Source of the DNA: Methanopyrus kandleri AV19
GTDB lineage: Archaea; JAADCQ01; Methanopyri; Methanopyrales; Methanopyraceae
Assembly (NCBI RefSeq): GCF_000007185.1
Contig: NC_003551.1
Location: 480,001 to 512,000 of the forward strand
Direction: 5' to 3'
Length of the DNA: 32,000 nt
Position 1 is the first letter of the stretch, and each line of letters begins with the position of its first letter. Position numbers and translations under genes: made by a program. Positions 6,258 through 30,690 of the stretch are shown one piece after another. The notes beneath the pieces are model-generated. The model had not been told where the DNA came from, searched no databases, and saw only the letters and a program-made list of their open reading frames with translations.

Positions 6258-6291
6258 TGGAAGACACCCCCACTATCGTAGCTTCACCACG

Positions 6292-6298
6292 TATAATA
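6292..6298. promoter_or_regulatory. TATA element (TATAATA) shared by divergent usp and Cys-rich-domain genes
   Basis: It is the only A/T box in the 70-nt spacer. It lies about 35-41 nt from the usp GTG (6257) and about 40 nt from ATG 6337. Confidence 0.35.
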
Positions 6299-6327
6299 CC
6301 GTAACGCTTCGTCTCGGGGGGTAGACC

Positions 6328-6723: not shown

Positions 6724-7123
6724 GGACCTCCTGGTCAACCCGGAATAGCGGGTTAGGATGGAAGTCCATGTTCAAACGCTCTTTGATGAGCCGCCTTAAG
6801 TCCTCCAGGGGAAGAGGGTTGGGATACCTAACGGGACCGTCCAGTGTAATCAGGTACGCGTGATCACGGCCCTCAAGGTACCTCCTCAGCTCGTCCTCGG
6901 ACGCTTTGGCTAACTCCGCGATCTCGGCGAGATCTTCCTCGGACTGTATCGCCACCTTCTTGATTTCCTCTATGGTGACCTCGCCGAGCACGGCGCACAG
7001 TGGACTGGACGCGTACACGATGCAGGTACGTTCTCGGAGGATCGTTCCCGGGAGCCACCTTCTAACTTCGACGTTCTTGACGCCGTCTAGGATCAAATTC
7101 GCGAATTTCGGCTTTACCGACAT
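6677..7123 (-). CDS. ASCH (PUA-like) domain protein
   Basis: The ORF is open to 7267, but the N-terminal 48 codons are hydrophobic or low-complexity. ATG 7123 gives MSVKPKFANLILDGVKNVEVRR..., the typical ASCH domain opening (sIkPeya..Il.G.K.vElRr). Confidence 0.7.
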   Translation of the reverse strand: MSVKPKFANLILDGVKNVEVRRWLPGTILRERTCIVYASSPLCAVLGEVTIEEIKKVAIQSEEDLAEIAELAKASEDELRRYLEGRDHAYLITLDGPVRYPNPLPLEDLRRLIKERLNMDFHPNPLFRVDQEVLNVVRSAVGVSDRLF

Positions 7124-9094: not shown

Positions 9095-9100
9095 TCACCC

Positions 9101-9958
9101 GTGCTGACACGTCGTTCCGGTTTGCCAGACACCTCCGTCATGAGGTTAGCCACCACGAACGTCGTATCGATGCCACCTACCGCCACAGTGAAAAGCGCCG
9201 TCGACACGATGATACGGTACGGGTTCCGCAGGATTCCAGTGACGGAACCGGGTGAGCTGGAACTTGTCGGTATTATGACGGGCAAGGACGTGTTAGACTA
9301 CTTGGTCGGAGAGCGTCGGAAGATAATAGAGCGCCGATATGGGAGTACGTTCCTTCCGGCACTCCATGAGCCCGTGAGATCACTAATGAGAACTGAAGTC
9401 TACGTTATCACCCCATACGATACCGTCCGTAAAGCCGTTCGGACGATGTTTGAGTTCGAAGTCGGGGCTTTACCTATAGTGAAAGACAAGAAGCTCGTAG
9501 GGATAATCACTGAACGCGATATTATGGCCGATCTTTACGACGTACTGGAGGACACGAGAGTTGAGGAGATAATGACTGAGGACCCCGAAACAGTCCCATC
9601 GGACATTACGGTACTCGAAGCCGCGGAAATAATGGTAGACAGAGAGTTTCGGAGACTCCCAGTGGTTGAAAACGGGAGGTTATGCGGCCTCGTAACCGCT
9701 ACCGATGTGCTCCATCACGTCTCCAGTATGGCGACTGAAACATCGCCGGATGCGTCTGTTGAAGAAGTTATGGATGTGCCGGTGGAAGAAATTATGACAG
9801 AAGATGTCATTACAATCGAGCCTGACGTTAATATTGAAGAAGCCGCATTAACGATGAAGGGGGCTAACGTCGGAAGTTTAGTAGTGACGGAGGGTAACGA
9901 TGTGATAGGAATCATAACCGAACGAGATATTATGTACGCCATTGCCGAGAGAATGTGA
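9101..9958 (+). CDS. Four-CBS-domain protein
   Basis: 285 aa. GTG 9101 is preceded by GGAGTGATCACC, a near-perfect complement of the archaeal 16S 3' end. There are four CBS repeats with the recurring GI(I/M)T.(R/K)D(I/V) signature. Confidence 0.85.
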   Translation: MLTRRSGLPDTSVMRLATTNVVSMPPTATVKSAVDTMIRYGFRRIPVTEPGELELVGIMTGKDVLDYLVGERRKIIERRYGSTFLPALHEPVRSLMRTEVYVITPYDTVRKAVRTMFEFEVGALPIVKDKKLVGIITERDIMADLYDVLEDTRVEEIMTEDPETVPSDITVLEAAEIMVDREFRRLPVVENGRLCGLVTATDVLHHVSSMATETSPDASVEEVMDVPVEEIMTEDVITIEPDVNIEEAALTMKGANVGSLVVTEGNDVIGIITERDIMYAIAERM

Positions 9959-12113
9959 GGTACAGTGAAACACAGAGGCTGAAAGCTGAAAGCGCAATCC
10001 AAAGTGGGTGAGGGTTCCAAACGAATTTGACGGTGGTGGGACTTGGGACGCGAAGCAAGATCATGTTGTCAATGCCGCCCAACCTCACACCTCGATCCGG
10101 GATCCAGCAGGGGAAGTAAGGTACCTTCACCCATACCCATCCACGCCCATAGACTTTGAACCAAGCGTGGCCCAAGTCCACACGTATCGGTTTTAAGTTC
10201 CTCTTAGGTAGCATCTTCACAATACGAAGCGGTCTATCATGAACTATATTGATCCCGAATATCTTGGTTTTGAACTTATGATATCTATCCAGCACTAGGA
10301 TTTCCTTAACTCCAAATTCCTTAAGTACTCTTACTTCTTCGGGTGATGGATGCCTATCCATCACCACAACTTGTGGATGAGCATAACGTACTAAGTCACA
10401 ATCAGGAATTCGTGTGAAGGCGTACGCTGGTGCGTATTTAGGATCATATCGCAACAGTTTACAAAGTCTCATATACCTGTATTTGTTACCTAAAAATACT
10501 GATTTAATATCATCTATTTCATACCCCATCGTTGGATTAAACTCGTAAACTTTCACCCATCGATAATCACGAATGGGTCGTACACCAACGCGTTCCAGTT
10601 CCGTGATCATACGCTTAGCATACGGTTTCCGTGAACTTAGTATCAAAAACCGAACCCCTAATACATCCCCTATTTTCAATGCTTTATTGGGTTCTACACG
10701 CTTGAATGAACGCTGATACTGTACAACAACATCCCGAATTGGAGTACCCTCACGGTACCACCCGAAGACTGATGGAGCACCAGTAATGTAAGGTTCCATT
10801 CCCCAAAGTGCTCGATACCCTACCGTTGCTACCCTATCCCACGGTCCAGTATGCTCCCTCATCCACAGTAAAGCCGATAGTTCAGAGACTGTGTAATGAA
10901 CTGGACGATAAGCATATTTTAAACCGATTGCTGCATCGACTACCATCATTGAGCATATCATTATCAGCACGGTGTGTCGCCTTAGGAACCGGAAATTATC
11001 AACGACGAATGCCACAAATGTGCAGAGAATCACTGCCGAAAACATCAAAAACCATTTCGGTTCGAAACCAATCCGCTCCATGGGTTTCTGAAGCACGAGC
11101 CCGAAGGACAGGAGCAGTGCCACACCGGTCATGATCGCGAAGGGAAGGAAAGTTCTAGGACGGCGTCGTGCCGCGAGAATTAACCCCGCCCAACCCAGGA
11201 GGAACTGGATCGCACCCACGTATTTGGCGTACCTTGTTTTCCAATAGTCCGGTACGAAGAACTCCCACGGATCGTGTACCGAAGACATGCTGATCCACCA
11301 TTTCGGCTTGGTGGTATAGGAGTACGTCCGGTACTCAAGGGCGGGCATCAACCACCACGAAACCGCGAGTACCGAGAGCAAAATCGCGAAGAGTACCCAC
11401 GCGTGTCCCGGTACCTCCGGGAGTATCGAAGGAAGCTCCTCTTTCCCCACCGCCCACAACGTCCAGGATCGGGAGATGCGGAGCGCTACGTAGGCTAGGC
11501 ACACCGTTATAGCGGCCAGACCCGAACTGTGGTGCATGAGGATAGTCAGGGAGAGCACGAGCGCCAAATAACCGGCCCAGCGACCGCGCTCCCAGACTCT
11601 CCGATATACGGCCACAAGCAGCCCGGGAACCAGGGCGTAGAAGACGATGGCGGCAACGGTCGGGATTCGACCCTCAGTGAATGTAATTTCAATATGATTG
11701 TAGGACGTCTGATACGCGACGGCGGCGATTAGGGACCCTAACGGTGAGGCTCCCATCAGACGGGCGGATGCGTACACCGACGGCCCCGCAAGCGAGTAAG
11801 CCAGCCAAGTCCACCATTTCCACGCCGTTAGGACGTCCGTCTTCGCGAGGTGTGTCATCAGGGCAGGGATGAAGTACGCCAGGGGTGGATAAAACCACAG
11901 AAAGGGGTACCCGCAGTACCAGTATTCCGACCATTTCGGGTACGGCACGTCGCCCATCGACCAGAGCTTTTCGAGCATCCAAACCTTAGTCATGTGCCCG
12001 CGCGCGTCTGCACCACTGGGAAACCAGTTCCAACCGTAGTCAAGGGAAGGAGAAGACACCACCGCACCCACTAGGAAAGCGACCAGTGCACACAGTACGT
12101 CTTTACGATCCAA
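9930..12113 (-). CDS. Large polytopic membrane protein with extracytoplasmic C-terminal domain and terminal TM anchor; possible GT-C-fold (YfhO/ArnT-like) glycosyltransferase
   Basis: The ORF is open to ATG 12239 (769 aa). I prefer TTG 12113 (LDRKDVLCALVAFLVG...) because codons 12114-12239 are low-complexity and antisense to the RNA ligase N-terminus. It has about 12 TM helices, then a basic ~300-aa soluble domain, then a final TM (LWIALSAFSLCVSLYLTF). The function call is weak and based only on architecture. Confidence 0.75.
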   Translation of the reverse strand: MDRKDVLCALVAFLVGAVVSSPSLDYGWNWFPSGADARGHMTKVWMLEKLWSMGDVPYPKWSEYWYCGYPFLWFYPPLAYFIPALMTHLAKTDVLTAWKWWTWLAYSLAGPSVYASARLMGASPLGSLIAAVAYQTSYNHIEITFTEGRIPTVAAIVFYALVPGLLVAVYRRVWERGRWAGYLALVLSLTILMHHSSGLAAITVCLAYVALRISRSWTLWAVGKEELPSILPEVPGHAWVLFAILLSVLAVSWWLMPALEYRTYSYTTKPKWWISMSSVHDPWEFFVPDYWKTRYAKYVGAIQFLLGWAGLILAARRRPRTFLPFAIMTGVALLLSFGLVLQKPMERIGFEPKWFLMFSAVILCTFVAFVVDNFRFLRRHTVLIMICSMMVVDAAIGLKYAYRPVHYTVSELSALLWMREHTGPWDRVATVGYRALWGMEPYITGAPSVFGWYREGTPIRDVVVQYQRSFKRVEPNKALKIGDVLGVRFLILSSRKPYAKRMITELERVGVRPIRDYRWVKVYEFNPTMGYEIDDIKSVFLGNKYRYMRLCKLLRYDPKYAPAYAFTRIPDCDLVRYAHPQVVVMDRHPSPEEVRVLKEFGVKEILVLDRYHKFKTKIFGINIVHDRPLRIVKMLPKRNLKPIRVDLGHAWFKVYGRGWVWVKVPYFPCWIPDRGVRLGGIDNMILLRVPSPTTVKFVWNPHPLWIALSAFSLCVSLYLTFSRQWRT

Positions 12114-16756: not shown

Positions 16757-17057
16757 GGCGGAAGTGAAAAAAGGATGGAGGGGGCCTACCCCTCGGCCCC
16801 GACCTCTACCACACGCGGCACCAACATCGCTGTGCACATTTCAGGCATTTCGAGAGTGGCCTGGTCGTCCTCCCAGCGTTCCAACTCCACTCGATCACTT
16901 CCGGATAGAGCGTGGAGGACGCGTCCGAAGTTCATCGGGGCCTCCCCTACTCGTTTTACCCCCAAATGTACGAGGTCGTTAAAATAGAAGGCGTGTCATG
17001 ACAAGGGTATGGAGTTCCTAAAGCGCGATCCGTGTTCACGAAATGGGCACAACATTG

Positions 17058-17073
17058 TTCGATCCACTTCGAA
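17058..17073. promoter_or_regulatory. TTCG-N8-CGAA inverted repeat (MsvR-type box as I recall it) abutting the rubrerythrin-like gene promoter
   Basis: The sequence TTCGATCCACTTCGAA sits directly 5' of the A/T-rich box at 17072-17085. Its role as a regulator site is inferred, not shown. Confidence 0.3.
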
Positions 17074-17085
17074 AAAGTTAAAAGG
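17072..17085 (+). promoter_or_regulatory. TATA-like box (AAAAAGTTAAAAGG) for the rubrerythrin-like gene
   Basis: An A/T-rich element 35-45 nt upstream of ATG 17119, in an otherwise GC-rich spacer. Confidence 0.35.
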
Positions 17086-17118
17086 TACGTAGCGAACGGT
17101 GATCAAGGGCGCTCGAAC

Positions 17119-17505
17119 ATGGACTTCGAGGAGTACCTCGAGAAGTGGTTCAAGGGCGAGACCACCGAGGTAGGCATCTACATGGCGATGGCCATCGTCG
17201 CTAGAGAGCAGGGCTACCCCGAAGTATGTGACCTGCTGGAGCAAATCGCTATGGACGAAGCCCGACACGCGGCCGCCGCGGCGCTGATCGCGGGGAAGGT
17301 CGAGAACAGTCTGGAGGGCCTGATCGAGAAGATGGAAGAAATGATTGAAGGTGAGAAAAACGCCTACGAAACCAGGATGGACGAAGCCGACCACCACTCC
17401 GACGAGCTGGACGACGAGATCATCACCCTGCTGAAGGCTACCGCATACGACGAAAAGCACCACAGGAAGATGCTCAAAGCGGCCCTCGAAAAGCTGAAGG
17501 AGTAA
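17119..17505 (+). CDS. Rubrerythrin-like ferritin-fold diiron protein (no rubredoxin domain)
   Basis: The ORF is open from 17032. ATG 17119 (MDFEEYLEKW) fits the promoter spacing. Four-helix diiron ligand pattern: ETTEVGIY, MDEARH (ExxH), EGEKNAYE (ExxE), YDEKHH (ExxH). There is no C-terminal CxxC...CxxC. Confidence 0.8.
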   Translation: MDFEEYLEKWFKGETTEVGIYMAMAIVAREQGYPEVCDLLEQIAMDEARHAAAAALIAGKVENSLEGLIEKMEEMIEGEKNAYETRMDEADHHSDELDDEIITLLKATAYDEKHHRKMLKAALEKLKE

Positions 17506-17571: not shown

Positions 17572-18342
17572 TTGAGGTACGTCGACGCACATGTGCACCT
17601 CGACGTTAGGAGTTACGAAGACCTCGAGAGAATGGCCTTATCTGGAGTCCGAACCGTCGTCACGTGCGCTCACGATCCTTACCCCGACATGACGGCCGAG
17701 GTGTACTCCGCCCTCTTCAGAAGGCTCCTCGGGGTGGAAACGTGGAGGGGCGAAAAGGCCGGGCTCACGGTTAAGGTGGCCGTGGGAGTACATCCCGGAG
17801 GCGTACCGGATAACATGAGCGACGTGCTACGGGAAGTCGAGGAACTCCTGAGTCATGAGGACGTCGTCGCGATCGGAGAGACCGGCCTCAACGAAAATCC
17901 GGATGATAGAGAAATCCAAGTCCTGGAGGCTCAGCTGAAGTTAGCCCGAGAGCACGAGGTACCCATCATTGTCCACACGCCGAGCAGGAACAAGGTCGAG
18001 ATCACCGAGAAGGTGTTGGAGATCCTGAACTCTTCGGGTATAGACCCCTCTCTGGTGCTGGTGGACCACGCCTCGGCGGAGACCGTCTCGCTCATCGGTG
18101 AGGAAGGGTACGCGGTCGGGCTGACACTCCGACCGGGAGAGCTCGATGTGTGGGAAGCGTGTGATATCGTGGAGGAGTACGCCGACGAAATGACGCTCAT
18201 CGCGAGCAGCGACCTGGGATCTCTAGCCGCCGATCCACTCGCCCTCCCCAAGCTGGCCCTCGAACTGGAACGCCGGAACGTCGAGAAGAGCATCATCCGG
18301 GACGTCGTAGCCCGGAACGCTGAGAGGTTTTACGGGCTCTAA
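17572..18342 (+). CDS. TatD-related TIM-barrel metal-dependent hydrolase (archaeal COG1099 type)
   Basis: 256 aa, TTG start. It has VDAHVHLD (HxH), AIGETGLN, PIIVHTP and a VDH segment, typical of the TatD/amidohydrolase fold. Confidence 0.8.
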   Translation: MRYVDAHVHLDVRSYEDLERMALSGVRTVVTCAHDPYPDMTAEVYSALFRRLLGVETWRGEKAGLTVKVAVGVHPGGVPDNMSDVLREVEELLSHEDVVAIGETGLNENPDDREIQVLEAQLKLAREHEVPIIVHTPSRNKVEITEKVLEILNSSGIDPSLVLVDHASAETVSLIGEEGYAVGLTLRPGELDVWEACDIVEEYADEMTLIASSDLGSLAADPLALPKLALELERRNVEKSIIRDVVARNAERFYGL

Positions 18343-18532: not shown

Positions 18533-19327
18533 TTGAGAACCAACGTTTACCCAAGGGGCTGTGAGGATCGATTGCGCTTCGCCGCACTCTACTCCCACCA
18601 GTTCGGTAAGAGGATGGTAGCCAACCTACTGAACGAACCCGGTCACTGCAGGGCTTGCGGGCCTGTATGCGACGGGTGCAAGTACGACATGTATTCGCTC
18701 GTCGACTCCCTCGTCGCCGTTGAGGAGCTACCCAAACCCGAAGAGTTACCTCCGTTCGTCGACGAGCCCGAGGATCACCTCCCCGAACTACCGCCCGTCG
18801 ATGTGCTGGTGGCGATCGGATTGCATCCCGACCTCCTAGTAGCGCTGTCCGAAGTATACGAGATTAAGGCACTGATAGTGCCCGTCGAGGAACCCGACTG
18901 GATCGACCCGTGGATCGAAGAGAAACTACGAGAGGTATGCGAAGAGAACAGCGTAGAGCTCACTGTGGCGAGGCCAGGATGCGACCTGGAACCGTCGGGT
19001 CCCGTAACCGAAGCGTTCTGCGACGCGGGCATGATCGGGAGGCCTAAGCTGTTCATGAAGGTCGAGGACGGCGTCGTGATCGACGTCCATGTAGTACGAT
19101 CGGCGCCGTGCGGTTGCACGTGGTTCGTGGCTAAACGACTGGTCGGTGTGGACGCTGATCCCGAAGAGGTGAAGGCTACAGTTTCCGAGGCACATCACTC
19201 GTACCCCTGCACGGCTTCGATGGAGGTCGACAAGCACGTGGGGGATACCCTGCTCCACGTAGCGGGCCGGTTGCACATCGAGGCGGCCCTCCGAGCGCTC
19301 GAGGAAGCGACGGATACCGACGCCTGA
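18533..19327 (+). CDS. Conserved archaeal Cys-rich protein, DUF166/COG1810-like
   Basis: LYSHQFGKRMVANLLN, CRACG..CDGC, SAPCGCTWFVAKRL, AHHSYPCTASM and DTLLHVAG match the DUF166 pattern I remember (family assignment from memory). The start is uncertain among TTG 18533, TTG 18572 and ATG 18614. Confidence 0.6.
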   Translation: MRTNVYPRGCEDRLRFAALYSHQFGKRMVANLLNEPGHCRACGPVCDGCKYDMYSLVDSLVAVEELPKPEELPPFVDEPEDHLPELPPVDVLVAIGLHPDLLVALSEVYEIKALIVPVEEPDWIDPWIEEKLREVCEENSVELTVARPGCDLEPSGPVTEAFCDAGMIGRPKLFMKVEDGVVIDVHVVRSAPCGCTWFVAKRLVGVDADPEEVKATVSEAHHSYPCTASMEVDKHVGDTLLHVAGRLHIEAALRALEEATDTDA

Positions 19328-19335
19328 CGGGTATC

Positions 19336-19704
19336 TCACGCCCCGCCCAGTACTCGCTCCAAAACTTCCCGGAACAGTCTCCACTTATCCCCGTGCAGAC
19401 TGTACTCCCTGCGCACGTCGTCCTCGATGTCCTCAGCCCTGTAACCGACGGGATAGTACGTCGAGACGAGCTCCCCGTTTCGGCGCTCCGGTCTCAGCTC
19501 GATTTCACCCCGACGGAGCAGGTCGAAGATCGCTTCCTTCACGTCGACGGAGAAGTAGGGTGCCTTGAGCAACATGCAGTGACCGTATTCCGTTCCCGTC
19601 AATGGTCTTCCGGTCTCACGTTCGAAAGCTTTGTCGAGCAAATACACCGCACGGAACAAGGAGCGCTTATCTACGCCCGGTCGGAACGCGACGATGTACT
19701 TCAT
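19336..19704 (-). CDS. Hypothetical protein, divergent from the CODH cluster (weak SocA/Panacea-like resemblance)
   Basis: The ORF is open to 19764; ATG 19704 (MKYIVAFRPG...) is more natural. LFRAVYLLDKAFERETGRPLTGTEYGHCMLLKAPYFSVDVKEAIFDLLRRGEI loosely resembles the KL.YL.d.....G.plt...y.....GPy pattern. The function call is speculative. Confidence 0.5.
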   Translation of the reverse strand: MKYIVAFRPGVDKRSLFRAVYLLDKAFERETGRPLTGTEYGHCMLLKAPYFSVDVKEAIFDLLRRGEIELRPERRNGELVSTYYPVGYRAEDIEDDVRREYSLHGDKWRLFREVLERVLGGA

Positions 19705-19825
19705 CAGCGGCCGCAAGTTAGCGCCCGTCGGTTTGACCGTGTGACACCTGCACCGGGCGTGCAACCTGGGTCCCCCTTGTATCAGTATGTTCGAAAGTGT
19801 CCAAACGTTTGATGAAAATCGAAAC

Positions 19826-19833
19826 TAATATAA
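19826..19833 (+). promoter_or_regulatory. TATA-like box (TAATATAA) upstream of the CODH-like gene
   Basis: This is the most A/T-rich element in the 19765-19900 spacer and lies about 70 nt upstream of GTG 19901. The predicted leader would contain the direct repeats at 19859-19888 and GGGGATCCCC, which is both SD-like and palindromic. Confidence 0.35.
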
Positions 19834-19858
19834 GTCAAGTCACCCCTCCAATGGTCGG

Positions 19859-19888
19859 ATAGTATCGAACGTTCCCATAGTACCGAAC
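19859..19888 (+). repeat. Direct repeat ATAGTA(T/C)CGAAC x2, 18-nt period, in the CODH cluster leader/promoter
   Basis: ATAGTATCGAAC (19859-19870) and ATAGTACCGAAC (19877-19888) match at 11 of 12 positions. The first copy overlaps the palindrome GAACGTTC (19867-19874). Confidence 0.8.
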
Positions 19889-19900: not shown

Positions 19901-21817
19901 GTGGAGGAAAAGAGATCCTCGTGCCCGTACGCCGATGAAGCCGTGTGTGAGCTAGTCGAGCACGCGAAGGAGCTGAATGAGGAGATTCCGGAGATAGAGA
20001 CCCCGCACATCCGATGGCCCGTTCAGTTCCCGAAGTGCCCGTACGGCAAGCAAGGCGTCTGGTGTAACATCTGCTCGAACGGCCCGTGCCGAATTACGGA
20101 GAAGACACCACGCGGTGTCTGCGGAGCGACGGCGGACGTGATCGTGGCACGCAACTTCTTGCGTCACGTCGCCGCCGGAGCCGCGTGCTACGTGCACTGC
20201 CTGGAGAACGCCGCCCGGGCCCTCAAGTCCGTGGCGGACGAGGAATCTCCTTACGAGATCGCAGACGAGAAGGCGCTGAGGCACGCTGCCGAAGTATACG
20301 GTCTAGATACCTCCGGTAAACCGGAAGATGTGGCCGAGGAGATCGCAGAGTTCATTCTCGAGGATATCTACAGGCCCAGATATGAGGAGTCCGAGGTGTT
20401 CAAGGCTGTTGTACCCGATTGGCGCATCGAGATGTACGAGGAAATGGGCCTAATTCCGGGCGGAGCTAAGTCGGAGATACACGACGCCCTTGTCAAGACG
20501 AGTACGAACCTCAACTCAGACCCCGTTGACATGCTCCTCCACGTGCTGCGACTGGGACTGATCACCGGCCCTGTCGCGCTCTTCGGTGTGGAGACGATCA
20601 ACGATATCCTCTTCGGCAGCCCGAAGATCACGCAAACGGAGGGTGGTCCCGGAATACTGGACCCGGACTACGTCAACATCATGACGACCGGCCACCAGAT
20701 GGCTCTCATGAAGTACCTGACGGACGCCGCCGAGAAGCTGGAAGAAGAGGCCAAGGCGGCGGGAGCTAAAGGTATCCGGATCATCGGTGCGACGTGCGTC
20801 GGCGACGATTTCGAGGCGCGCGCCGAGCACCTACCAGACACGTACGCGGGCTTCGCGGGTAACAATTTCGCGACGGAGGCGCTCGCAGCAACGGGTCTCG
20901 TGGACGCGATCGTGAGCGAGTTCAACTGCACGTTCCCGGGTCTGAAGTTCTACAAGGAGAAGCTGGACGTCGAGCTGGTCGCCGTCGACGACGTGGCCAA
21001 GGTGTGGGGCGCGGAGCTGATCCTCTGGGACCCGGAGCGTGCCGAGGAGGTCGCGGAGGAGGCCGTCCAGAGGGCCATTGAGGCGTTCAAGGAGCGCCGG
21101 TCGAAGCACGAGGACAAGATCATGGAGCCGAAGCACAGGCACGAGAACGTGGTGGGGTTCGGATACTTCTCGATCGAGGAGGCCGTCGGCTGGGAGAACG
21201 TGCTCAAGCTGATCGAAGAAGGCACCATCCGCGGCGTGTGCGCCATCATGGGCTGCACGAATCTCTCCAGCGGCGGCCACAACGTGCCGGCGGTCGAGCT
21301 CGCCAAGGAGATGATCAAGCGCGACGTGCTCGTGCTCGGCGCCGGCTGTGTGAACGGGGCGTTCGCCAACGCTGGACTGTTCAACCCTGAAGCAGCCGAG
21401 CTGGCCGGTGACAACCTCCGACAGGTGTGCGAGGAGTTAGGTATTCCACCGGTGCTGCATTACGGCCCATGTCTGGCGATCGGTAAGATCGAGCATCTCG
21501 TCTTCGAGATCGCCGAGATACTTCGAGAGAAAACCGGCGAGGAAATCGACATCCCGGACGTACCCGCCGTCGCGAGCGCGCCGCAGTGGCTCGAGGAGCA
21601 AGCCCTAGCGGACGCGTCCTCGGCCTTAGCTCTAGGTATCACGCTGCACGTGAGTCCCGTACCGCCGGTGACCGGTAGCGAGCTGGTTACGAAGACGCTG
21701 CTGGAGGACCTACCGGATCTCACCGGCGGCGAGCTGATCGTGGAGACGGACATGAAGCGTGCCGGAGAGATTCTCGCCGAGAAGATCGAGGAGAAGCGGA
21801 AACGGCTTGGTATCTAA
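19901..21817 (+). CDS. cooS: Ni-dependent carbon monoxide dehydrogenase catalytic subunit homolog (CooS type, divergent)
   Basis: 638 aa, colinear over its full length with C. hydrogenoformans CODH-II as I recall it. B-cluster motif: WCNICSNGPCR...GVCGAT. C-cluster ligand equivalents: TGHQ (His261), GATCVG (Cys295), FNCTFP (Cys333), MGCTN (Cys446), GAGCVNG (Cys476), YGPCLA (Cys526). GTG start with a GGGGATCC SD. Confidence 0.9.
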   Translation: MEEKRSSCPYADEAVCELVEHAKELNEEIPEIETPHIRWPVQFPKCPYGKQGVWCNICSNGPCRITEKTPRGVCGATADVIVARNFLRHVAAGAACYVHCLENAARALKSVADEESPYEIADEKALRHAAEVYGLDTSGKPEDVAEEIAEFILEDIYRPRYEESEVFKAVVPDWRIEMYEEMGLIPGGAKSEIHDALVKTSTNLNSDPVDMLLHVLRLGLITGPVALFGVETINDILFGSPKITQTEGGPGILDPDYVNIMTTGHQMALMKYLTDAAEKLEEEAKAAGAKGIRIIGATCVGDDFEARAEHLPDTYAGFAGNNFATEALAATGLVDAIVSEFNCTFPGLKFYKEKLDVELVAVDDVAKVWGAELILWDPERAEEVAEEAVQRAIEAFKERRSKHEDKIMEPKHRHENVVGFGYFSIEEAVGWENVLKLIEEGTIRGVCAIMGCTNLSSGGHNVPAVELAKEMIKRDVLVLGAGCVNGAFANAGLFNPEAAELAGDNLRQVCEELGIPPVLHYGPCLAIGKIEHLVFEIAEILREKTGEEIDIPDVPAVASAPQWLEEQALADASSALALGITLHVSPVPPVTGSELVTKTLLEDLPDLTGGELIVETDMKRAGEILAEKIEEKRKRLGI

Positions 21818-21849
21818 TTCTCACCCCCACTTCCGGGATGGTGGTGACC

Positions 21850-22950
21850 ATGGAGATCGAGGCGATCCGTGTAGCAACGGGAGCTCCTGGCGAACTGTAT
21901 ATGGTAGCCGAGATCGCGGAGGACAAGGTCGTGAACGCCGAAGTGTGCTCGGGCACGACACCGATCTCCTGGGAGACGCTCGTCCTCGAGAAGCCCGTGG
22001 AGTTCGCCGTAGTGGCCGCCGAACGAGTATGCGCCAGCTGTGACGCGAGCCTAGGGCTCGCCGTGGTCGAGGCGGCCGAGGCAGCTCTCAACGTCGAGAT
22101 CCCGGACGAGGCGGAGCGAGCGCGCGAGATCCTGAACATGGCTAACGTCGTCAGGGCGCACGCCACCGTGCTGGCGAGGACTGACTTCCTCGACGTGAAG
22201 AAGCCCGCGTACGACCTAGTGAGAGCTGCGAAGGACATCATGCACGCCGTCGGAGGGAAGCCCGACCACCCACCGGCCGTGACCGTAGGCGGTTTGGACC
22301 TCGAAAAGCTGCCCGTAGACAGGGTTGAATCCGTAGCTAAGGACGCCGCCGAGGTGGCAGACAGGCTTGAGGACGAGGTCGGATCCGCGGTAGATCGGAT
22401 GAAGGAAGATATCGACGTGGAACCGGAGGAGATGCCGGCGGGACTGAAGGTTTCGGACACGTACAAGGGCGACATAGACCCAGACAAGGTCGAGACGCTA
22501 ATGCCGGATGAATTCTACCGTATGAAGACCACCCTGGAGATAGCGAACAACGTCGTCGCCAGGTATGACGGGGAGCCCGTCCTCGTCGGTCCTTACGCCC
22601 GAGTAAGGAGCGCGGAAAACCCGCTGGACCTCTACACCGCCAGGGCCGAGGAAGTAGCGAGGATGCTCGACGGTATCGCAAACGCCGTATCCAGGCTAGA
22701 TCCGACCGGGAACTTCCGAACGGACGTCGAGCTCGGCTCGGGCGAGGGTACGGCGGCTGTGGAGGCACCGGAGGGTACCCTGATCGTCTCGCTGAGACTA
22801 CGGGCCGGGCGCGTGGACAAGGCCCTGATGTTAACTCCATGCAACTTCAAGGTTGCGGCGATCGGGGAGATGGTGCGCGACCTGACGGTTGACAGGGCTG
22901 AGACAGTTCTACGCGCGATCGGCCTCTCCGGTAGATGTCTTACCCACTAG
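21850..22950 (+). CDS. [NiFe]-hydrogenase large-subunit homolog (FrhA-like, group 3), active-site motifs degenerate
   Basis: ATG 21850 (MEIEAIRV) is preceded by GGTGGTGA; ATG 21838 is also in frame. It is colinear with FrhA: ERVCASCDAS corresponds to RxCGxCxxxH, EAPEGTLIVSL to EAPRGxLxH, and the C-terminus RAIGLSGRCLTH-stop to RAYDPCLSCATH. Confidence 0.8.
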   Translation: MEIEAIRVATGAPGELYMVAEIAEDKVVNAEVCSGTTPISWETLVLEKPVEFAVVAAERVCASCDASLGLAVVEAAEAALNVEIPDEAERAREILNMANVVRAHATVLARTDFLDVKKPAYDLVRAAKDIMHAVGGKPDHPPAVTVGGLDLEKLPVDRVESVAKDAAEVADRLEDEVGSAVDRMKEDIDVEPEEMPAGLKVSDTYKGDIDPDKVETLMPDEFYRMKTTLEIANNVVARYDGEPVLVGPYARVRSAENPLDLYTARAEEVARMLDGIANAVSRLDPTGNFRTDVELGSGEGTAAVEAPEGTLIVSLRLRAGRVDKALMLTPCNFKVAAIGEMVRDLTVDRAETVLRAIGLSGRCLTH

Positions 22951-22963: not shown

Positions 22964-23680
22964 ATGAAGGTGGCTGTGCTGTCCCTTATGGCTTGTGGTA
23001 CATGCGCCAGGAACCTGGAGGAGGTTTGCCACGAAGAGGGTCATGAGGTGGTCTGGTCGAACCTAGAAGGCGACGAGGGAGAACCGGACGCCGACATTCT
23101 GTTCGTAGAAGGCGCGGTGGACTTCGCCGACGCCGAGACCCTGGAAAAGTTAGAGGAGGCCGCTTCGGCCGTCAGTACCGTGGTATCACTGGGTTCCTGT
23201 GCCGCTACCGGGGGTTTCGAGCGACACGTCATAGGCATGCGCGACCCCGACCGGTACCACTTCACGGTCTTCCCAGCTGCCAAGTTCGTCGAAACGGACT
23301 ATGCGATCAACGGCTGTCCACCTACTACGGACGTGATCGCGTCCTTCCTCAGAGCTCTAGAGGAGGAGAACGAGGACGAACTCCGACCGTACGAAGTCTT
23401 GTCCGGGGATTTCCACGGGCTCACGCCGGAACTGTCCGCTCCGGTGACCGGTCCGACGGTACCGGTCGAGGACGTACTCCTGACGTCGAACAAGGACCTG
23501 TGCCTGGGCTGCGACCTGGACGTGATTGAGAAGGACCTCTTCTGCGTCGGCTGCGGAACGTGTGCCGCCTCCTGCCCGGCGTGGGCTATCGAGATGGACG
23601 AGAAGCCCGTAATCCGGCAAGAGAGGTGCGTTCGATGCGGAACTTGCTTCGTAAGCTGCCCGAGATCGTTCAGGATATGA
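22964..23680 (+). CDS. Hydrogenase small-subunit homolog (FrhG-like) with C-terminal 2x[4Fe-4S] ferredoxin domain
   Basis: ATG 22964 (MKVAVLSLMACGTCARN). Proximal-cluster pattern: CGTC, LGSCAATGG, INGCPP. Then CVGCGTCAASCP and CVRCGTCFVSCP. The ORF-track start at 22889 overlaps the upstream gene and is unlikely. Confidence 0.85.
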   Translation: MKVAVLSLMACGTCARNLEEVCHEEGHEVVWSNLEGDEGEPDADILFVEGAVDFADAETLEKLEEAASAVSTVVSLGSCAATGGFERHVIGMRDPDRYHFTVFPAAKFVETDYAINGCPPTTDVIASFLRALEEENEDELRPYEVLSGDFHGLTPELSAPVTGPTVPVEDVLLTSNKDLCLGCDLDVIEKDLFCVGCGTCAASCPAWAIEMDEKPVIRQERCVRCGTCFVSCPRSFRI

Positions 23681-23699: not shown

Positions 23700-24623
23700 G
23701 TGTTGCGCAAGCTGATCCGAAGAATAGCAGGGGGCAAAGAGGAAGAGAATACCCGTGAGGGATCTCCCGAGAACGATCTCCCGGACCCCGAGGTCGTGGG
23801 TGAGTACCGCGAGGTTTACCTGACCCGCGCAACCGACGAACGTATCCGCGAGCACGGACAGGACGGAGGTACTACTACGGCGCTACTCGCCCACGCACTG
23901 GAGGAGGACACGGTGGAAGCCGTGATTGCCTCGTCGACAGTCGAGACATGGAAGCCCGAACCCGTAATAGTCACCGATCCCGACGAACTGATCGAGACCG
24001 CGGGATCGAAGTACGCGATTTCTCCGAACGTGAGTGCCCTCAACGAGGCCATAGCCTCCTACGACTCAGTCGCCCTCGTGGGCACGCCGTGTCAGATCAC
24101 CGCCGTAAAGAAGTCTAAAATGTACCCTTACGGCCTGGCTAACGTGACGGAGCGTGTGAAGCTAACCGTCGGCATCTTCTGCACCGAGAACTTCCAGTAC
24201 GAGAGCCTACTGAAGCTGCTCGAAGACATGGGTGTCGACGTCGAGAACGTCGAGCGTATGGACATCAGCCACGGTGAATTCATCGTACGCACTAAGAACG
24301 GTGATGTGCACTCGGTATCGGTTTCCAAGCTAGGCGATTACGCCAACGAGGCGTGTAACTACTGCACGGACTTCACGGCCGAGGACGCCGACATCAGCGT
24401 GGGATCCGTCGGCGCGCCGGATGGCTGGAACGTGGTTCTGGTCCGGACGAAAGAAGGCGAGAAGGTGTTCCGGTCCGCCGTAGACGCTGACGTCCTGGAA
24501 GTCAAAGATATCGGGGAAGGGGACCCGAACCTGCTCGAGCGCCTGGCCAGGGACAAGAAGGAACGCATTCACACCTCCATGTGTGCCACTTGGAGACCTT
24601 ATCACCCTACCGTTCCTCTCTAA
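23700..24623 (+). CDS. FrhB/FdhB-family F420-interacting FAD/FeS subunit homolog
   Basis: 307 aa. GQDGGTTTALLAHALEE, GSKYAISP, VALVGTPCQITAVKK, GIFCTENF and CNYCTDFTAEDADISVGSVG match FrhB N- and C-domain signatures. GTG 23700 gives a charged extension of about 30 aa; GTG 23796 is an alternative start. Confidence 0.85.
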   Translation: MLRKLIRRIAGGKEEENTREGSPENDLPDPEVVGEYREVYLTRATDERIREHGQDGGTTTALLAHALEEDTVEAVIASSTVETWKPEPVIVTDPDELIETAGSKYAISPNVSALNEAIASYDSVALVGTPCQITAVKKSKMYPYGLANVTERVKLTVGIFCTENFQYESLLKLLEDMGVDVENVERMDISHGEFIVRTKNGDVHSVSVSKLGDYANEACNYCTDFTAEDADISVGSVGAPDGWNVVLVRTKEGEKVFRSAVDADVLEVKDIGEGDPNLLERLARDKKERIHTSMCATWRPYHPTVPL

Positions 24624-24664: not shown

Positions 24665-25129
24665 GTGATCAAGCCACGAGATTTCCTGAGGTATTTCCTC
24701 TACTCTTACATCGTAACTTCCGCACAGCTGCTGGGAGATAAGGCCCCTACTCTACGGCGGATGGTATGCAAAAACGTGGTAAAGGCGTTGCTACGCGAGC
24801 ATCCGGAGCTGAAAGATGCCGAACCGGTGGAGCTTGTCAAAGATGTGGCGGAGAGCTTCCTAGGGGCCGACGTCAGGATAGAAGAGAAGTCAACGGAAAC
24901 CGTCGTACACGTGAGAGGGTGCAAGATCTGCCCACGCGATCTGATCGAAGAGTTTACAGGTGAGAACCCCGACCTGGAGGGTCCCGTCTTCAGCTACAAC
25001 GTGTGCGCGTTTGTGACCATGGTTGAGGAGATTCTGCACGCTCTGGGCCACATAGATTCCGACATCAAGCATGACCCAATCAAACGCGGGCGCTGCCGCG
25101 TAATCGTCAGGCCTAAGGGCACGGACTGA
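24665..25129 (+). CDS. Small stand-alone V4R-like domain protein
   Basis: The ORF is open from 24581; GTG 24665 or ATG 24761 are plausible starts. LLGDKAPTLRRMVCKNVVKAL...VVHVRGCKICPRD...NVCAFVTMVEEIL...RGRCRVIVRP resembles the V4R pattern (helical N-part, then C-x2-C ... C ... C in beta strands). Assigned by eye. Confidence 0.55.
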   Translation: MIKPRDFLRYFLYSYIVTSAQLLGDKAPTLRRMVCKNVVKALLREHPELKDAEPVELVKDVAESFLGADVRIEEKSTETVVHVRGCKICPRDLIEEFTGENPDLEGPVFSYNVCAFVTMVEEILHALGHIDSDIKHDPIKRGRCRVIVRPKGTD

Positions 25130-25143: not shown

Positions 25144-25872
25144 TTGACCGTCCCGACGTTCCTTCGCAAGGTGACCCTGCGTGAGATCTGTGTCATTGAG
25201 GAGTACGTGGACGTCCAATACAGGGCTATCGAAGCGTTGATGGACACACTACCTTCGACCGACCTCGTCCGGCTGACCGTAGCCAATGCTCTCGTCAGCT
25301 ATCAGCTCTCGAGCTCTGGAGAGGATTGGTGGCGTGAGTTCTCCAGCTACTTCCGTGAACGTCGTCCGAGGGACATCGTTCGAGAGTACGCCCGGTTCCT
25401 TCCCCGCTCTAGGGGCAATCGGAGGCTCATCCGTCAGAAGCTCCGCCGCCTCCATCGTGCTAAGGCCTTTCTAGAGGAGTTATCCTGGCAGGACGCGAAA
25501 TCGTACTACCGTGACATGAACCGGTTACGCCTTGACCTTGCTCGGGTCCTCAACGCCGATCCCGAGTCTAAGACGATCGTGTTCACGGTCAAGATGTTCG
25601 GGTACGCACTAAGGGCGATAACGGGTAGGTTTCGTCCTTATCCGTTCGAGATTCCGATTCCTGTGGACGCGAGGATCGAACGAATCACCCGAAGGATCAC
25701 GAACGATGATCCACAACTGTACTGGGACTCGATCGCACGGCGGACAGGCATCCCACCACTACACCTTGACTCGATCCTATGGGTCGGGACGAGTCGGGAT
25801 CCAGAGGTAAAGAGACTGCTGGCAAAAGTCTTACCGAAGCTTATAGGGGAACTGGAGATGTTGGGCAATTGA
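25144..25872 (+). CDS. agog: Archaeal 8-oxoguanine DNA glycosylase / N-glycosylase-DNA lyase (AGOG family)
   Basis: 242 aa, TTG start. ANALVSYQLSSSGEDWWREF, KTIVFTVKMFGYA, IPIPVDARIERIT and PPLHLDSILW follow the AGOG (Pyrobaculum Pa-AGOG type) HhH pattern as I recall it. Confidence 0.8.
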   Translation: MTVPTFLRKVTLREICVIEEYVDVQYRAIEALMDTLPSTDLVRLTVANALVSYQLSSSGEDWWREFSSYFRERRPRDIVREYARFLPRSRGNRRLIRQKLRRLHRAKAFLEELSWQDAKSYYRDMNRLRLDLARVLNADPESKTIVFTVKMFGYALRAITGRFRPYPFEIPIPVDARIERITRRITNDDPQLYWDSIARRTGIPPLHLDSILWVGTSRDPEVKRLLAKVLPKLIGELEMLGN

Positions 25873-25931: not shown

Positions 25932-26097
25932 CATAAGTGATCCGAGAGGACGGAACGACTCGCGACGTATTGGAGGCGATTTTTTGTTAACCTAACGATG
26001 ACGAGCTCGGGGTTCGGTTCGGGCAGACAAAGTACGGTCGGTGGGGGGTCCGAGCTGGTACGGCCCGGCAGTCAGAACCTTCGAGGGGACCCGAGCT

Positions 26098-26835
26098 ATG
26101 AAACTGGTGATCGACGTACCGAAGGAGATCGCTAAGGCCTTGGACAGCAAAACACGACGTGAAATCCTGAAACTGCTGGAAGAACGCGGCTCGATGACGA
26201 TATCGGACATCGCCAGGGAGCTGAACCTGTCCAAATCAACTGTCCATCACCATTTACAGGAACTCCGAAAGGCCGGTCTCGTGGACGTCATCAAAGAGGA
26301 TCGCGAAACTCCCCTCCCGAAGCGCTACTACGGGCTCGTGAGAAGACTCGTCCGAGTATCGAAGCCGAAGCTTGAAGATGCCTCCGAGTATGTCATAAAA
26401 GCCCTAGAACGTGGGGAGGACCTGAGAACATCGATGTTCCTAGCGATCGCGGCAGCGTATCGCGCGGTGTTGGAGTCCCTGGGTATCGACGCCTCGGAGG
26501 TCCTGTACGAGCTCGGAAAGGAGATCGGTAAGCGACTCGCGGAACTAGGATCCGAAGAGACCGTGCTGCGGAAGGGCTTGGAGATCATAGCCGAGTCAGT
26601 AGAATTCCGTCAGGAGAACGACCGTGTGGTGGTCGAGATTGAAGGATGCCACGAGTGTTCCGACCTACCCTACGGTCCCGCATGTCATTTGGAGGCGGGA
26701 ATCATAGCCGGTGTTCTGTCGAACCTGAGGGAACGACCTTACGAAGTCCGGGAGGTGGAGTGCTGCGGGGAAGGCGCTGATAGATGCGTGTTCGTGGCGG
26801 AACCAGCTACTGACGAAGAACGCCCCAAGTCCTAG
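26098..26835 (+). CDS. msvR: ArsR-type wHTH + C-terminal V4R domain transcription regulator (MsvR family-like)
   Basis: ATG 26098 (MKLVIDVPKEIAKALDSKTRREILKLLEERGSMTISDIARELNLSKSTVHHHLQELRKAGLV) is an ArsR HTH. The C-terminus VVEIEGCHECSDLPYGPACHLEAGIIAGVL...VECCGEGADRCVFVAEP is a V4R domain. The ORF is open from GTG 26041. Confidence 0.8.
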   Translation: MKLVIDVPKEIAKALDSKTRREILKLLEERGSMTISDIARELNLSKSTVHHHLQELRKAGLVDVIKEDRETPLPKRYYGLVRRLVRVSKPKLEDASEYVIKALERGEDLRTSMFLAIAAAYRAVLESLGIDASEVLYELGKEIGKRLAELGSEETVLRKGLEIIAESVEFRQENDRVVVEIEGCHECSDLPYGPACHLEAGIIAGVLSNLRERPYEVREVECCGEGADRCVFVAEPATDEERPKS

Positions 26836-27148
26836 TGACTTTAGACACTCCTTCTACCCAGGCGACCAAGGCTAACGTGGCGGCTATCTCTTCGTCGGTC
26901 ACTTCGGCGACGTTCTTCGCCGTCTCGGCTATGAGGCCTACTCTACGCTCGTCTCCGGCAGCCGCCGCCAAAGCGAGGGCGATGAGATGCTTCGTCTTGT
27001 CGTCCAACGGAGACTCCTTCCATATTATTCTATGCAGCTCCTCAACGACCTCCGCGTACTCATCTCCCAACATCTCTTCGGCATACTTCACAGCTATCAG
27101 ACCTTTTTCGTCCTCCTCCTTGGCCGGTTCACCGGGCTTCCGGGACAA
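26807..27148 (-). CDS. Carboxymuconolactone decarboxylase / AhpD-like family protein
   Basis: 113 aa, TTG start. SPLDDKTKHLIALALAAAAG...VTDEEIAATLALVAWVEG is the CMD-domain pattern. There is no CxxC. It overlaps the convergent MsvR-like gene by 29 nt. Confidence 0.75.
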   Translation of the reverse strand: MSRKPGEPAKEEDEKGLIAVKYAEEMLGDEYAEVVEELHRIIWKESPLDDKTKHLIALALAAAAGDERRVGLIAETAKNVAEVTDEEIAATLALVAWVEGVSKVTRTWGVLRQ

Positions 27149-29805: not shown

Positions 29806-29916
29806 CTAAGGATGGGGATGATGGAGGCCCTCCCTAGCCGAGGGAACCGATGAGGATCCAGCCCTTTCGCCGACCCCCCAGTGAAATGCTGTCCGGAGGA
29901 GAACGGGGGGACCCGC

Positions 29917-30690
29917 TTGAAGAAACCCGTCGACGCTCACTGTCATCTTTGCTTCAAATACTTCAAAGGCGAGGAAGACGAAGTGGTAGAACGGTCACGG
30001 AAGAAGGTGTTACGCGTGTACGACTGCGGGGCTACCCCTGGAACCGCACGGCGAACCCTGGAGTTAGCGGAGAGATTCGAGGGGTTCGTGTTCTCCACGA
30101 TCGGGCTCCATCCCCCACGAGCGCCGAGGATGCAGCAGAGCGTCATCGATGACGTGGTCCGAATTATCCGTGAGCACGCCGACAGGATCGCGGCAATTGG
30201 AGAGATAGGTCTTGACTACCACTACGTGAAGGAACCCGGAGAGCGCAGGAGGATGCGAGAGGTCTTCGAGAGGTTCCTGAAGCTCGCGGAAGAGCTCGAC
30301 AAGCCGGTAGTGATTCACGCCAGGGATGCGGAAGAGCACGCCCTCGAGGTCCTAGAGGACTACGACGTAGTCGCCATGTTCCACTGCTACGACGGACCGG
30401 CCGAGCTCGCCCGGCGTATCGCGGACGCCGGCCACTACGTTTCACTGTCGACGATTCACGTCATTCGTGGACCGAAGGATGAGAGAACGCGGGAACTGCT
30501 GGAGACTGTACCGTTGGAAGCGGCACTTACGGAGACGGACAGCCCATACCTGTCACCGGTGCGGGGAGAACGCAACGAGCCTCGGAACGTGTGGAGGGTA
30601 ATAGAGTTGCTCGCGCGGGTGAAGGGAGTCCCCGTCGGCGAGGTAGTTGAGACCACGGCGCGTAACGCGCTGGAGTTCTACGATCTATGA
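29917..30690 (+). CDS. tatD: TatD-family metal-dependent hydrolase / DNase (COG0084 type)
   Basis: The ORF is open from GTG 29881. TTG 29917 gives (M)KKPVDAHCHL, the usual TatD opening. It also has AIGEIGLDYHY, PVVIHARDA, MFHCY and TETDSPYL. Confidence 0.85.
   Translation: MKKPVDAHCHLCFKYFKGEEDEVVERSRKKVLRVYDCGATPGTARRTLELAERFEGFVFSTIGLHPPRAPRMQQSVIDDVVRIIREHADRIAAIGEIGLDYHYVKEPGERRRMREVFERFLKLAEELDKPVVIHARDAEEHALEVLEDYDVVAMFHCYDGPAELARRIADAGHYVSLSTIHVIRGPKDERTRELLETVPLEAALTETDSPYLSPVRGERNEPRNVWRVIELLARVKGVPVGEVVETTARNALEFYDL

Follow-up and report, generated by a model that had tools for sequence, protein, structure and literature searches.

frhA' is an open reading frame (ORF) on the forward strand of Methanopyrus kandleri AV19, located at positions 21850..22950 of a stretch of 32,000 nucleotides (contig NC_003551.1, positions 480,001 to 512,000) that is termed the window; coordinates below are window positions unless another locus is named. 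It encodes a paralog of FrhA, the large subunit of the F420-reducing [NiFe] hydrogenase, and is found between cooS, a gene for an anaerobic nickel carbon monoxide dehydrogenase (Ni-CODH), and two genes, termed frhG' and frhB', that resemble those for other subunits of the hydrogenase. The FrhA' protein folds like FrhA yet is without the defining catalytic features of a group 3a large subunit, a conclusion supported by its structure model and motif alignments. Its probable role is to scaffold FrhG', without catalytic activity of its own, in a predicted CO:F420 oxidoreductase. The whole finding is computational.

The frhA' gene and its product

The reading frame extends from an alternative start at 21838 to 22950 (+) and gives a chain length of 370 amino acids (aa); residue numbers in this text count from 21838. 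This mechanical start is probably too long. The second ATG, at 21850, is the start in most FrhA' homologs and is preceded by GGTGGTGA. Because GGTGGTGA is a good ribosome-binding sequence, and because of the starts of the homologs, 21850 is probably the likelier start.

The amino acid sequence has 100% identity to an M. kandleri protein annotated as "Ni/Fe hydrogenase subunit alpha". A phmmer search of the PDB aligns residues 17–370 with positions 14–386 of Methanothermobacter marburgensis FrhA without large gaps (4ci0_A and 3zfs_A, E ~3e-20). His370 pairs with His386 of FrhA, where the mature chain of 386 residues ends (405 residues before processing). An AlphaFold2 (AF2) model based on a 35-sequence alignment has a mean pLDDT (predicted local distance difference test) of 93.2 and a pTM (predicted template modelling score) of 0.93, and the best Foldseek matches of this model are FrhA structures (9r51_A and 6qgr_A, TMq 0.91; 3zfs_A, 0.87). 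An initial annotation, made from the letters of the window, had described the protein as colinear with FrhA, and both the full-length alignment and the fold bear this out.

The curated family models give a mixed result. FrhA' scores 39.9 bits with Pfam PF00374 (gathering cut-off 25.8), with the match confined to the N-terminal 80 residues, and 120.2 bits with the NCBIfam frhA equivalog TIGR03295, whose cut-off is 392.5.

Loss and replacement of the [NiFe] motifs

Four motifs that are characteristic of hydrogenase large subunits are present in FrhA' as altered remnants:

21868..21894, + strand: L0 remnant, RVATGAPGE where RxEGH is expected; none of the Arg, proton-relay Glu and His is retained (EGH to PGE relative to FrhA)
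22024..22053, + strand: L2 remnant, RVCASCDASL where RxCGxCxxxH is expected; it retains Cys65 and Cys68 but neither Gly nor His
22762..22776, + strand: L4 remnant, EAPEG in place of EAPRG; an invariant Glu312 stands in place of the conserved Arg
22921..22950, + strand: L5 remnant, GLSGRCLTH and the stop codon in place of DPCxxCxxH, from the alignment with FrhA

These changes had been pointed out in the initial annotation: the loss of the N-terminal RxEGH, a CxxC pair without its trailing His, the missing Arg of EAPRG, and a C-terminus without the Asp, the Pro and the first Cys, leaving three of four metal-binding Cys. The translation and the alignment with FrhA agree with it on all of them. 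In the phmmer alignment, CGVCPIPH of FrhA corresponds to CASCDASL at L2, where Asp69 and Ser71 are invariant new residues and the position of the trailing His varies (Leu, Ser, Pro or Ala). At L5, DPCLSCATH corresponds to GLSGRCLTH; Asp-Pro is changed to Gly-Leu and the first Cys to Ser364, and Cys367 and His370 are kept. The remaining [NiFe] ligands are Cys65, Cys68 and Cys367, which include both bridging Cys (Cys68 and Cys367). A shifted register does not explain the losses, as neither MAFFT nor hhalign restores four Cys and the Arg.

His370 is the last residue of FrhA', so that the ORF stops directly after the His at which maturation normally takes place, on the mature C-terminus of FrhA. 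A scan of the ORFs of the 32-kb window, down to about 100 aa, found no protease domain of the HycI/FrhD type. The initial annotation had reported both facts correctly and had used them as an argument for a changed subunit. As an argument they carry little diagnostic weight, however, because seven intact group-3 relatives (P0013, P0017, P0019-21, P0024 and P0025) also end exactly at this His; a missing C-terminal extension is thus not diagnostic alone. The suggestion that the subunit is non-catalytic or re-tasked is better based on the retained fold (pLDDT 93, TM 0.91) in combination with the loss of the fourth Cys, the L4 Arg, the L0 Glu and the L5 Asp-Pro.

Loss of these motifs is not common among related proteins. 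In an exhaustive HMMER search with the FrhA' family profile against 1.84 billion cluster representatives, the cluster of FrhA' itself scored 649 bits and the next protein 119 bits. RxCGxCxxxH, EAPRG and DPCxxCxxH are retained in the leading full-length relatives, and among the matches listed 93 of the 149 other proteins satisfy strict patterns for all three canonical motifs. The remaining listed proteins are mostly fragments or near-variants, with few that are truly degenerate. An intact CooS-linked FrhA was not found; the nearest intact relatives (P0012, P0013 and P0020) are in frhAGB-like operons or alone, without cooS.

Two other altered proteins are present among the matches listed. P0018 displays RICATDSLTH, IEGSTG and YNPCSHCATH, with a C-terminal extension still present, and P0146 displays RVSARSSSC and YDLSFCDAVH. 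Group-3-like large subunits may have lost the [NiFe] site on several separate occasions.

Conservation of the replaced site

A word-indexed search yielded eight further FrhA' sequences with 87% to 55% identity, two of them labelled Methanopyrus, and a genome scan located the same operon in metagenome-assembled genomes (MAGs) of Methanopyri. In the alignment of these homologs, Cys37, Cys65, Cys68, Asp69, Ser71, Glu312 and the whole C-terminus, GLSGRC-x-TH, are invariant (mean column identity 76%). The codons for the conserved residues are not invariant. Arg366 is encoded by AGA, CGC, CGA, AGG or CGG in different homologs, Cys367 by TGT or TGC, Glu312 by GAG or GAA, and Leu363 by CTC, CTA or CTG.

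Ratios of nonsynonymous to synonymous substitution (Nei-Gojobori dN/dS), calculated for the same genome pairs, are 0.27-0.35 for frhA', 0.07-0.14 for cooS, 0.07-0.29 for frhG' and 0.16-0.47 for frhB'. FrhA' is the most diverged of the four proteins between M. kandleri and locus L001, a Methanopyri relative (56% identity; CooS 89%, FrhG' 82%, FrhB' 67%). As dN/dS is below 1 and the replaced residues are invariant, frhA' is under purifying selection, although less tightly than cooS with its catalytic product. More than 15 genomes or MAGs, from two orders, have an unbroken reading frame.

Constraint in FrhA' is among its strongest at the residues that took the place of the hydrogenase motifs, and on the evidence of these alignments the site is in a fixed, selected non-hydrogenase state. 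The motif loss is not due to chance, because the residues are invariant in nine homologs and the canonical motifs are usual among other relatives. The site had been termed "eroded" in the initial annotation. This is correct for the loss of motifs but misleading as to decay, because the replacement residues remain constant down to 55% identity while their codons change.

The FrhA' form of Methanocaldococcus

A second FrhA' family is found next to cooS in Methanocaldococcus. This form has a chain length of 298 aa (8920-9816 in locus L012 and 8966-9862 in L014; also present in L020-L024 and L028). Relative to the Methanopyri form its first ~40 residues are missing, and upstream of its start all frames contain stop codons. 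Its motifs are RLC(Y/C)LNEISH, IEGGEG and QLCERCYYL followed by the stop codon. The two families align with hhalign over 282 columns at 96.9% probability, with these pairs at the former active site (Methanopyri residue first):

Cys65 with Cys
Cys68 with Asn
Asp69 with Glu
Ser71 with Ser
Leu72 with His
Glu312 with Glu (of IEGGEG)
Ser364 with Cys
Arg366 with Arg
Cys367 with Cys

The last aligned pair, Leu368-Tyr296, leaves two residues on each side, and thus the end point is common to the two families. Each lineage has kept three Cys of the four, namely Cys1, 2 and 4 in Methanopyri and Cys1, 3 and 4 in Methanocaldococcus, the losses being independent and at different positions. Besides the end point, both forms have a Glu where the catalytic Arg would be, Arg366-Cys367, Ser71 and, at position 69, an acidic residue.

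M. kandleri FrhA' has 28.7% identity to the Methanocaldococcus form and 27.7% to an intact Frh-like protein, values that are not decisive for a sister relationship. The argument for a common origin therefore comes from the shared derived residues and the operon, not from raw similarity. FrhG' and FrhB' are 39.8% and 38.7% identical between the two lineages, and 36.7% and 28.0% identical to their counterparts in an intact system; this comparison also shows a distinctive motif, VLLTSNK(D/E)LCLGCD, common to both lineages. The most parsimonious account is that hydrogenase function was lost once, in a CooS-linked ancestor, after which each lineage dismantled the site in its own way. The Methanocaldococcus protein is this subunit in a further reduced state.

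The cooS-frhA'-frhG'-frhB' operon

The initial annotation did not take the genomic context into account. frhA' lies in a conserved operon, between cooS and frhG'/frhB':

19901..21817, + strand: cooS, anaerobic Ni-CODH catalytic subunit, clade C type, 638 aa (TIGR01702, 731 bits against a cut-off of 478)
21850..22950, + strand: frhA', FrhA-like paralog of [NiFe]-hydrogenase large subunits, active site incomplete (phmmer, AF2, Foldseek)
22964..23680, + strand: frhG', hydrogenase small-subunit / ferredoxin homolog (family scores, Cys motifs)
23700..24623, + strand: frhB', FrhB-type F420 reductase subunit with flavin adenine dinucleotide (FAD) and [4Fe-4S], exact start uncertain (matches to 3zfs_C and 8riu_B)
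24665..25129, + strand: conserved ORF directly 3' of frhB', ~151-160 aa in Methanopyri (locus comparison)

The four operon genes are on one strand, with intergenic gaps of 13-41 nucleotides in the window. Their order is identical in all six Methanopyri loci first fetched and is the same in the Methanocaldococcus loci. A scan with a CooS profile of one genome per GTDB species recovered 16 loci. The frh' genes follow cooS in 10 of 10 loci from Methanopyri or Methanocaldococcaceae, as far as the contigs extend, and are absent at all six CooS loci from other archaea or bacteria. Within this 16-locus scan the operon is thus seen only in Methanopyri and Methanocaldococcaceae. A gene for a membrane subunit was not found in the operon, either in the window or in the loci of relatives.

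M. kandleri CooS has 55-56% identity to the nearest CooS beyond Methanopyri, that of Methanocaldococcus, and ~48% to clade C proteins of clostridia and other Bacillota. Alignment to 6t7j shows that the C-cluster ligands are conserved (His265 and Cys299, 343, 452, 483 and 524) and that the B-cluster Cys are present. The second D-cluster Cys is replaced by Trp (KCPYGKQGVWC; residues 46-58, KCPYGKQGVWCNIC) and by Tyr in Methanocaldococcus. At the acid-base positions, Tyr is found for His (AAGAACY vs AAGAAAH) and Gln for Lys (EEQ vs SEK). Inoue et al. (2019, PMC6344411) describe a structural group C-3 of CODHs, confined to archaea, with a full C-cluster, Tyr and Gln at the acid-base positions, and no more than one Cys where the D-cluster would be; every one of these sequence features is present in M. 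kandleri CooS. The cdhA model gives 28 bits (cut-off 781). CooS is probably without a D-cluster, and electrons would then have to leave directly by way of the B-cluster. With the usual surface exit lost, the CooS dimer would need a tightly docked iron-sulfur partner.

Such clusters are predicted in the two other subunits. FrhG' keeps the four Cys of the proximal [4Fe-4S] cluster (CGTC, GSCAATGG, GCPP) and two CxxCxxCxxxCP motifs, in both lineages, and scores 130 bits with its NCBIfam equivalog (cut-off 245.5). The mechanical start of frhG', a TTG at 22889 that overlaps frhA', is probably too long, the real start being the ATG at 22964. FrhB' is similar to FrhB (3zfs_C, E = 2e-66, 228 bits), with its Cys motifs intact, and to 8riu_B (E = 8e-53). 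It carries PF04422 and PF04432 and scores 271 bits with the NCBIfam equivalog (cut-off 331.5). An N-terminal ferredoxin domain was not detected in FrhB' by Pfam scan.

The ORF that follows frhB' is present in all Methanopyri loci (e.g. 10824-11279 in L001 and 10782-11264 in L006) and is absent from the Methanocaldococcus loci. Cys35, Cys86-x2-Cys89, Cys114 and Cys144 are invariant. The sequence has no Pfam (E up to 5) or NCBIfam family match, and a single-sequence AF2 model is weak (pLDDT 64), with a TM of ~0.4 to designed proteins and Bet3/TRAPP folds. Resemblance to an MsvR-like V4R sensor was looked for; BLASTP shows no similarity and Pfam no match. The ORF may encode a fifth subunit or a (redox) sensor.

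Proposed function and alternatives

In the scaffold proposal, FrhA' would be descended from a group-3 (Frh-type) large subunit in which H2 activation was lost, and it would be kept as a structural partner that holds FrhG' folded and positioned. FrhA' and FrhG' together would bear a wire of three [4Fe-4S] clusters, and the products of the four adjacent genes would form a single soluble complex, CooS-FrhA'-FrhG'-FrhB'. CO would be oxidized at the C-cluster of the D-cluster-less CooS, and the electrons would exit through the B-cluster and pass along the FrhG' clusters to the [4Fe-4S] and then the FAD of FrhB', where F420 would be reduced; hydrogenase chemistry would not be required at any step. 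The former [NiFe] pocket would be filled or neutralized by the fixed set Asp69, Ser71, Glu312, Ser364 and Arg366. Glu46 and His370 may have been retained because they probably still anchor the C-terminus at a structural metal site.

Several points weigh against this proposal. Both the formation of a complex and the identity of its substrate are read from gene order. The competence of clade C CODHs, with their Tyr and Gln at the acid-base positions, to oxidize CO is debated (PMC6344411, PMC13240472). Monophyly of FrhA' across the two lineages is not established by similarity alone. The invariance of Cys37, Cys65, Cys68, Cys367, Asp69 and Glu312 exceeds the obvious need of a passive scaffold, and the remodelled site could bind a metal. 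Retention of the proximal cluster is unexplained if this cluster is a dead end.

A first alternative, which is considerably less likely than the scaffold, is that the former [NiFe] pocket has been re-tasked as a new redox or binding centre (mononuclear Fe, Ni, Zn or Fe-S). Its ligands would be the three Cys together with Glu312, Asp69 or, in Methanopyri, Cys37. The centre would relay electrons from CooS to the proximal cluster of FrhG' or bind a third substrate, much as in complex I the [NiFe] site gave way to the quinone pocket. Three of four Cys in each lineage and a carboxylate for the Arg in both would agree with such a site, as would the eight residues Cys37, Cys65, Cys68, Cys367, Asp69, Ser71, Glu312 and His370, which are invariant at 55% identity with synonymous variation in their codons. 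The proximal [4Fe-4S] ligands are kept in both lineages, suggesting that this end of the wire is still in use, and the usual exit cluster is lost from CooS. However, the two lineages keep different Cys and the Cys37 segment is missing in Methanocaldococcus, so that one conserved new site is hard to define, and the shared Glu312 and Arg366 could simply form a cavity-filling salt bridge. In known structures the [NiFe] site is buried far from the surface of the large subunit, a depth that is awkward for a relay to CooS. If true, the conversion of a hydrogenase site into a quinone site in complex I would have here its first soluble parallel derived from group 3.

Somewhat more doubtful is a second alternative, in which FrhA' is the same scaffold but the complex runs in reverse or has another substrate. 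Electrons from F420H2 would be delivered to the clade-C C-cluster, and a stress compound such as NO, hydroxylamine or an oxygen species would be reduced there. The Tyr and Gln of CooS could be accounted for in this way, a gene for a hybrid-cluster protein is located directly 3' of the operon in L012, and detoxification genes are found around the operon. FrhB modules often feed F420H2 electrons to detoxifying enzymes like Fsr, and 7np8 is among the FrhB' matches. Against this, CooS has all Ni-CODH C-cluster ligands conserved and scores far above the TIGR01702 cut-off (731 bits). From the redox potentials, oxidation of CO with F420 is thermodynamically favourable, whereas reduction of CO2 by F420H2 is unfavourable. 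We know of no alternative substrate for clade C CODHs, which also counts against a reversed complex.

It is very improbable that FrhA' is a working hydrogenase with an unusual site and that the operon encodes a CO- or F420-dependent H2-cycling enzyme. The public annotation as Ni/Fe hydrogenase subunit alpha would favour this, as would the passing of the PF00374 gathering score (39.9 vs 25.8 bits), the presence of both bridging Cys and one terminal Cys, and the existence of other hydrogenases without a C-terminal extension. Yet the catalytic-base Arg, the proton-relay Glu, the L2 His, and the L5 Asp-Pro and terminal Cys are gone, and the frhA equivalog score is less than one third of its cut-off. 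The Methanocaldococcus sister form is without a bridging Cys and the N-terminal ~40 residues, and canonical motifs are otherwise the rule among the best 150 relatives listed. Least credible of all is a decaying pseudogene or annotation artefact within a functional cooS-frhGB cluster, for although FrhA' is the fastest-evolving subunit (dN/dS highest or near-highest) and the Methanocaldococcus form is shortened, the frame is intact in >15 genomes or MAGs of two orders, dN/dS is ~0.3, the AF2 model is very confident and the blocks around the former site are invariant.

Gene neighborhood and possible physiological role

In the window the operon is flanked by these genes, several of them linked to oxidative stress:

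17032-17505, + strand: rubrerythrin, upstream, recurs near the operon in relatives
17572-18342, + strand: TatD-family protein, upstream, recurs near the operon in relatives
18533-19327, + strand: DUF166, upstream, recurs near the operon in relatives
25144-25872, + strand: AGOG 8-oxoguanine glycosylase, downstream
26041-26835, + strand: MsvR-like regulator with helix-turn-helix and V4R domains (redox-sensing type), downstream
26807-27148, - strand: CMD/AhpD-like protein, downstream

In Methanocaldococcus the region upstream of the operon carries genes for superoxide reductase (desulfoferrodoxin), rubredoxins, ferritin, peroxiredoxin, rubrerythrin, an FprA-like flavodiiron protein, a flavin mononucleotide (FMN) reductase and a flavoprotein. 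The coordinates of this oxygen-defence island, together with the genes that follow the operon in L012, are 1-6844 and 12066-15875 in L012 and 772-5822 in L021. Downstream of the operon in L012 the hybrid-cluster protein gene is followed by TatD and DUF166, both of which also flank the Methanopyrus operon. An Ogg-type 8-oxoguanine glycosylase is found downstream in other Methanocaldococcus loci (11831-12589 in L014; 10741-11124 in L021). In L021 a NikR-like regulator with ribbon-helix-helix and nickel-binding domains adjoins (11129-11536), where Methanopyrus has the MsvR-like protein instead.

The neighborhood suggests that the operon may supply F420H2 for oxygen detoxification, e.g. by FprA, when O2-sensitive hydrogenases are compromised.

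In both lineages an 8-oxoguanine glycosylase gene comes after the operon, yet the two genes are of different families (AGOG vs Ogg-HhH). This recurrence looks like a convergent or conserved operon link to the repair of oxidative DNA damage. MsvR-type boxes (TTCG-N7-9-CGAA) are not enriched in the window, with 4 matches vs 2.7 expected, and none is near cooS. The 136-bp region upstream of cooS displays, within 19780-19880, a TATA-like AT-rich element, TAATATAA, at ~19826-19833, and three copies of (T/A)TCGAA(A/C). A 142-aa ORF on the - strand (19336-19764), between DUF166 and cooS, is kept as a 141-aa gene in L001, L005 and L006 and could be assigned to no family. The window has two TatD-family genes: the one at 17572-18342 is the more divergent (80 bits with PF01026), and the other, at 29881-30690 (+), scores 244 bits.

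Comparison with known systems

Archaeal clade C CODHs have, to our knowledge, no function assigned at present. Databases and CODH surveys label the genes next to them "Ni/Fe hydrogenase" or "F420-reducing hydrogenase". Hydrogenase inventories of Methanopyrus and Methanocaldococcus are over-counted, and the cooS neighborhood takes on another meaning, if the large subunit is dead. Genome surveys have pointed out that these CODHs adjoin "F420-reducing hydrogenases". In the literature searched, no report was found of a CODH-associated large subunit without a [NiFe] site, and no relevant report on the corresponding M. jannaschii genes, MJ0725-0728.

One of the closest systems is FrhAGB (group 3a; 4OMF, 3ZFS, 4CI0, 9R51 and 6QGR). 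The operon shares with it the three-subunit module in the gene order A-G-B, the FrhA fold (TM 0.91), the proximal, medial and distal cluster motifs in FrhG', the FrhB' similarity (228 bits) and the mature end point. Unlike FrhAGB, the operon is without a complete [NiFe] site and a frhD protease gene, cooS is located upstream, and FrhA', FrhG' and FrhB' are each below the NCBIfam equivalog cut-offs.

Another close system is the F420-reducing CODH of Ca. Ethanoperedens (8RIU), which has a Cdh-type alpha2-epsilon2 core and a zeta subunit formed by a ferredoxin domain fused to an FrhB domain (PMC11493965). In it, as predicted for the M. kandleri complex, a Ni-CODH is coupled to an FrhB-type F420 reductase via [4Fe-4S] clusters, and the net reaction predicted here, CO + F420 to CO2 + F420H2, is the same. 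The M. kandleri CODH, however, is of the CooS type (clade C, without a D-cluster) and not of the Cdh type, and its wire would be a separate small-subunit homolog held by a dead large subunit. F420-reducing CODH activity has also been reported in Methanothermobacter, as cited in PMC3585446. F420-coupled CO oxidation thus has precedent in the Ethanoperedens enzyme and the Methanothermobacter activity. The scaffold proposal predicts a second, independently evolved CO-F420 coupling and a testable role for clade C CODHs. If true, it would also account, at the level of genes, for an F420-reducing CODH activity of hydrogenotrophic methanogens that has been reported for a long time.

Bacterial clade C CooS proteins have as neighbors CooF and FNOR, an FAD-NAD(P) oxidoreductase; a role in defence against reactive oxygen species has been proposed for them (PMC13240472). 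Here, too, a CODH and a wire are combined with a flavoprotein for the reduction of a hydride carrier. The arrangement differs in that the archaeal acceptor is Frh-derived and uses F420 rather than NAD(P), and in that the archaeal CooS is without a D-cluster. In the archaeal operon, the association with FprA, peroxiredoxin, rubrerythrin, 8-oxoguanine glycosylases and MsvR suggests that strict anaerobes may draw electrons for their defence against oxygen from a source that does not depend on hydrogenases.

The state of FrhA' itself is comparable to that of large-subunit homologs in complex I (NuoD/NuoB), Fpo, Mbx and Ehr, in which the Ni-binding Cys are missing and the paired small-subunit homolog keeps the proximal cluster. 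These modules provide the precedent for putting a hydrogenase pocket to a new use. Like NuoD, MbxL and EhrL, FrhA', with three of the four Cys, is paired with a partner, FrhG', that has the proximal-cluster Cys. NuoD, MbxL and EhrL are of membrane-bound group 4 and are located on ion-translocating arms, whereas FrhA' is of soluble group 3; it scores 19 bits with the NuoD model TIGR01962 (cut-off 459), and its best relatives are group 3 Frh and SHI proteins. Dead large subunits are well known in group 4, but a soluble group-3 example associated with a CODH appears to be undescribed. If the scaffold proposal is true, FrhA' would be an example of a soluble hydrogenase that has become nothing but a scaffold for electron transfer, with the two lineages at different stages in the dismantling of the active site.

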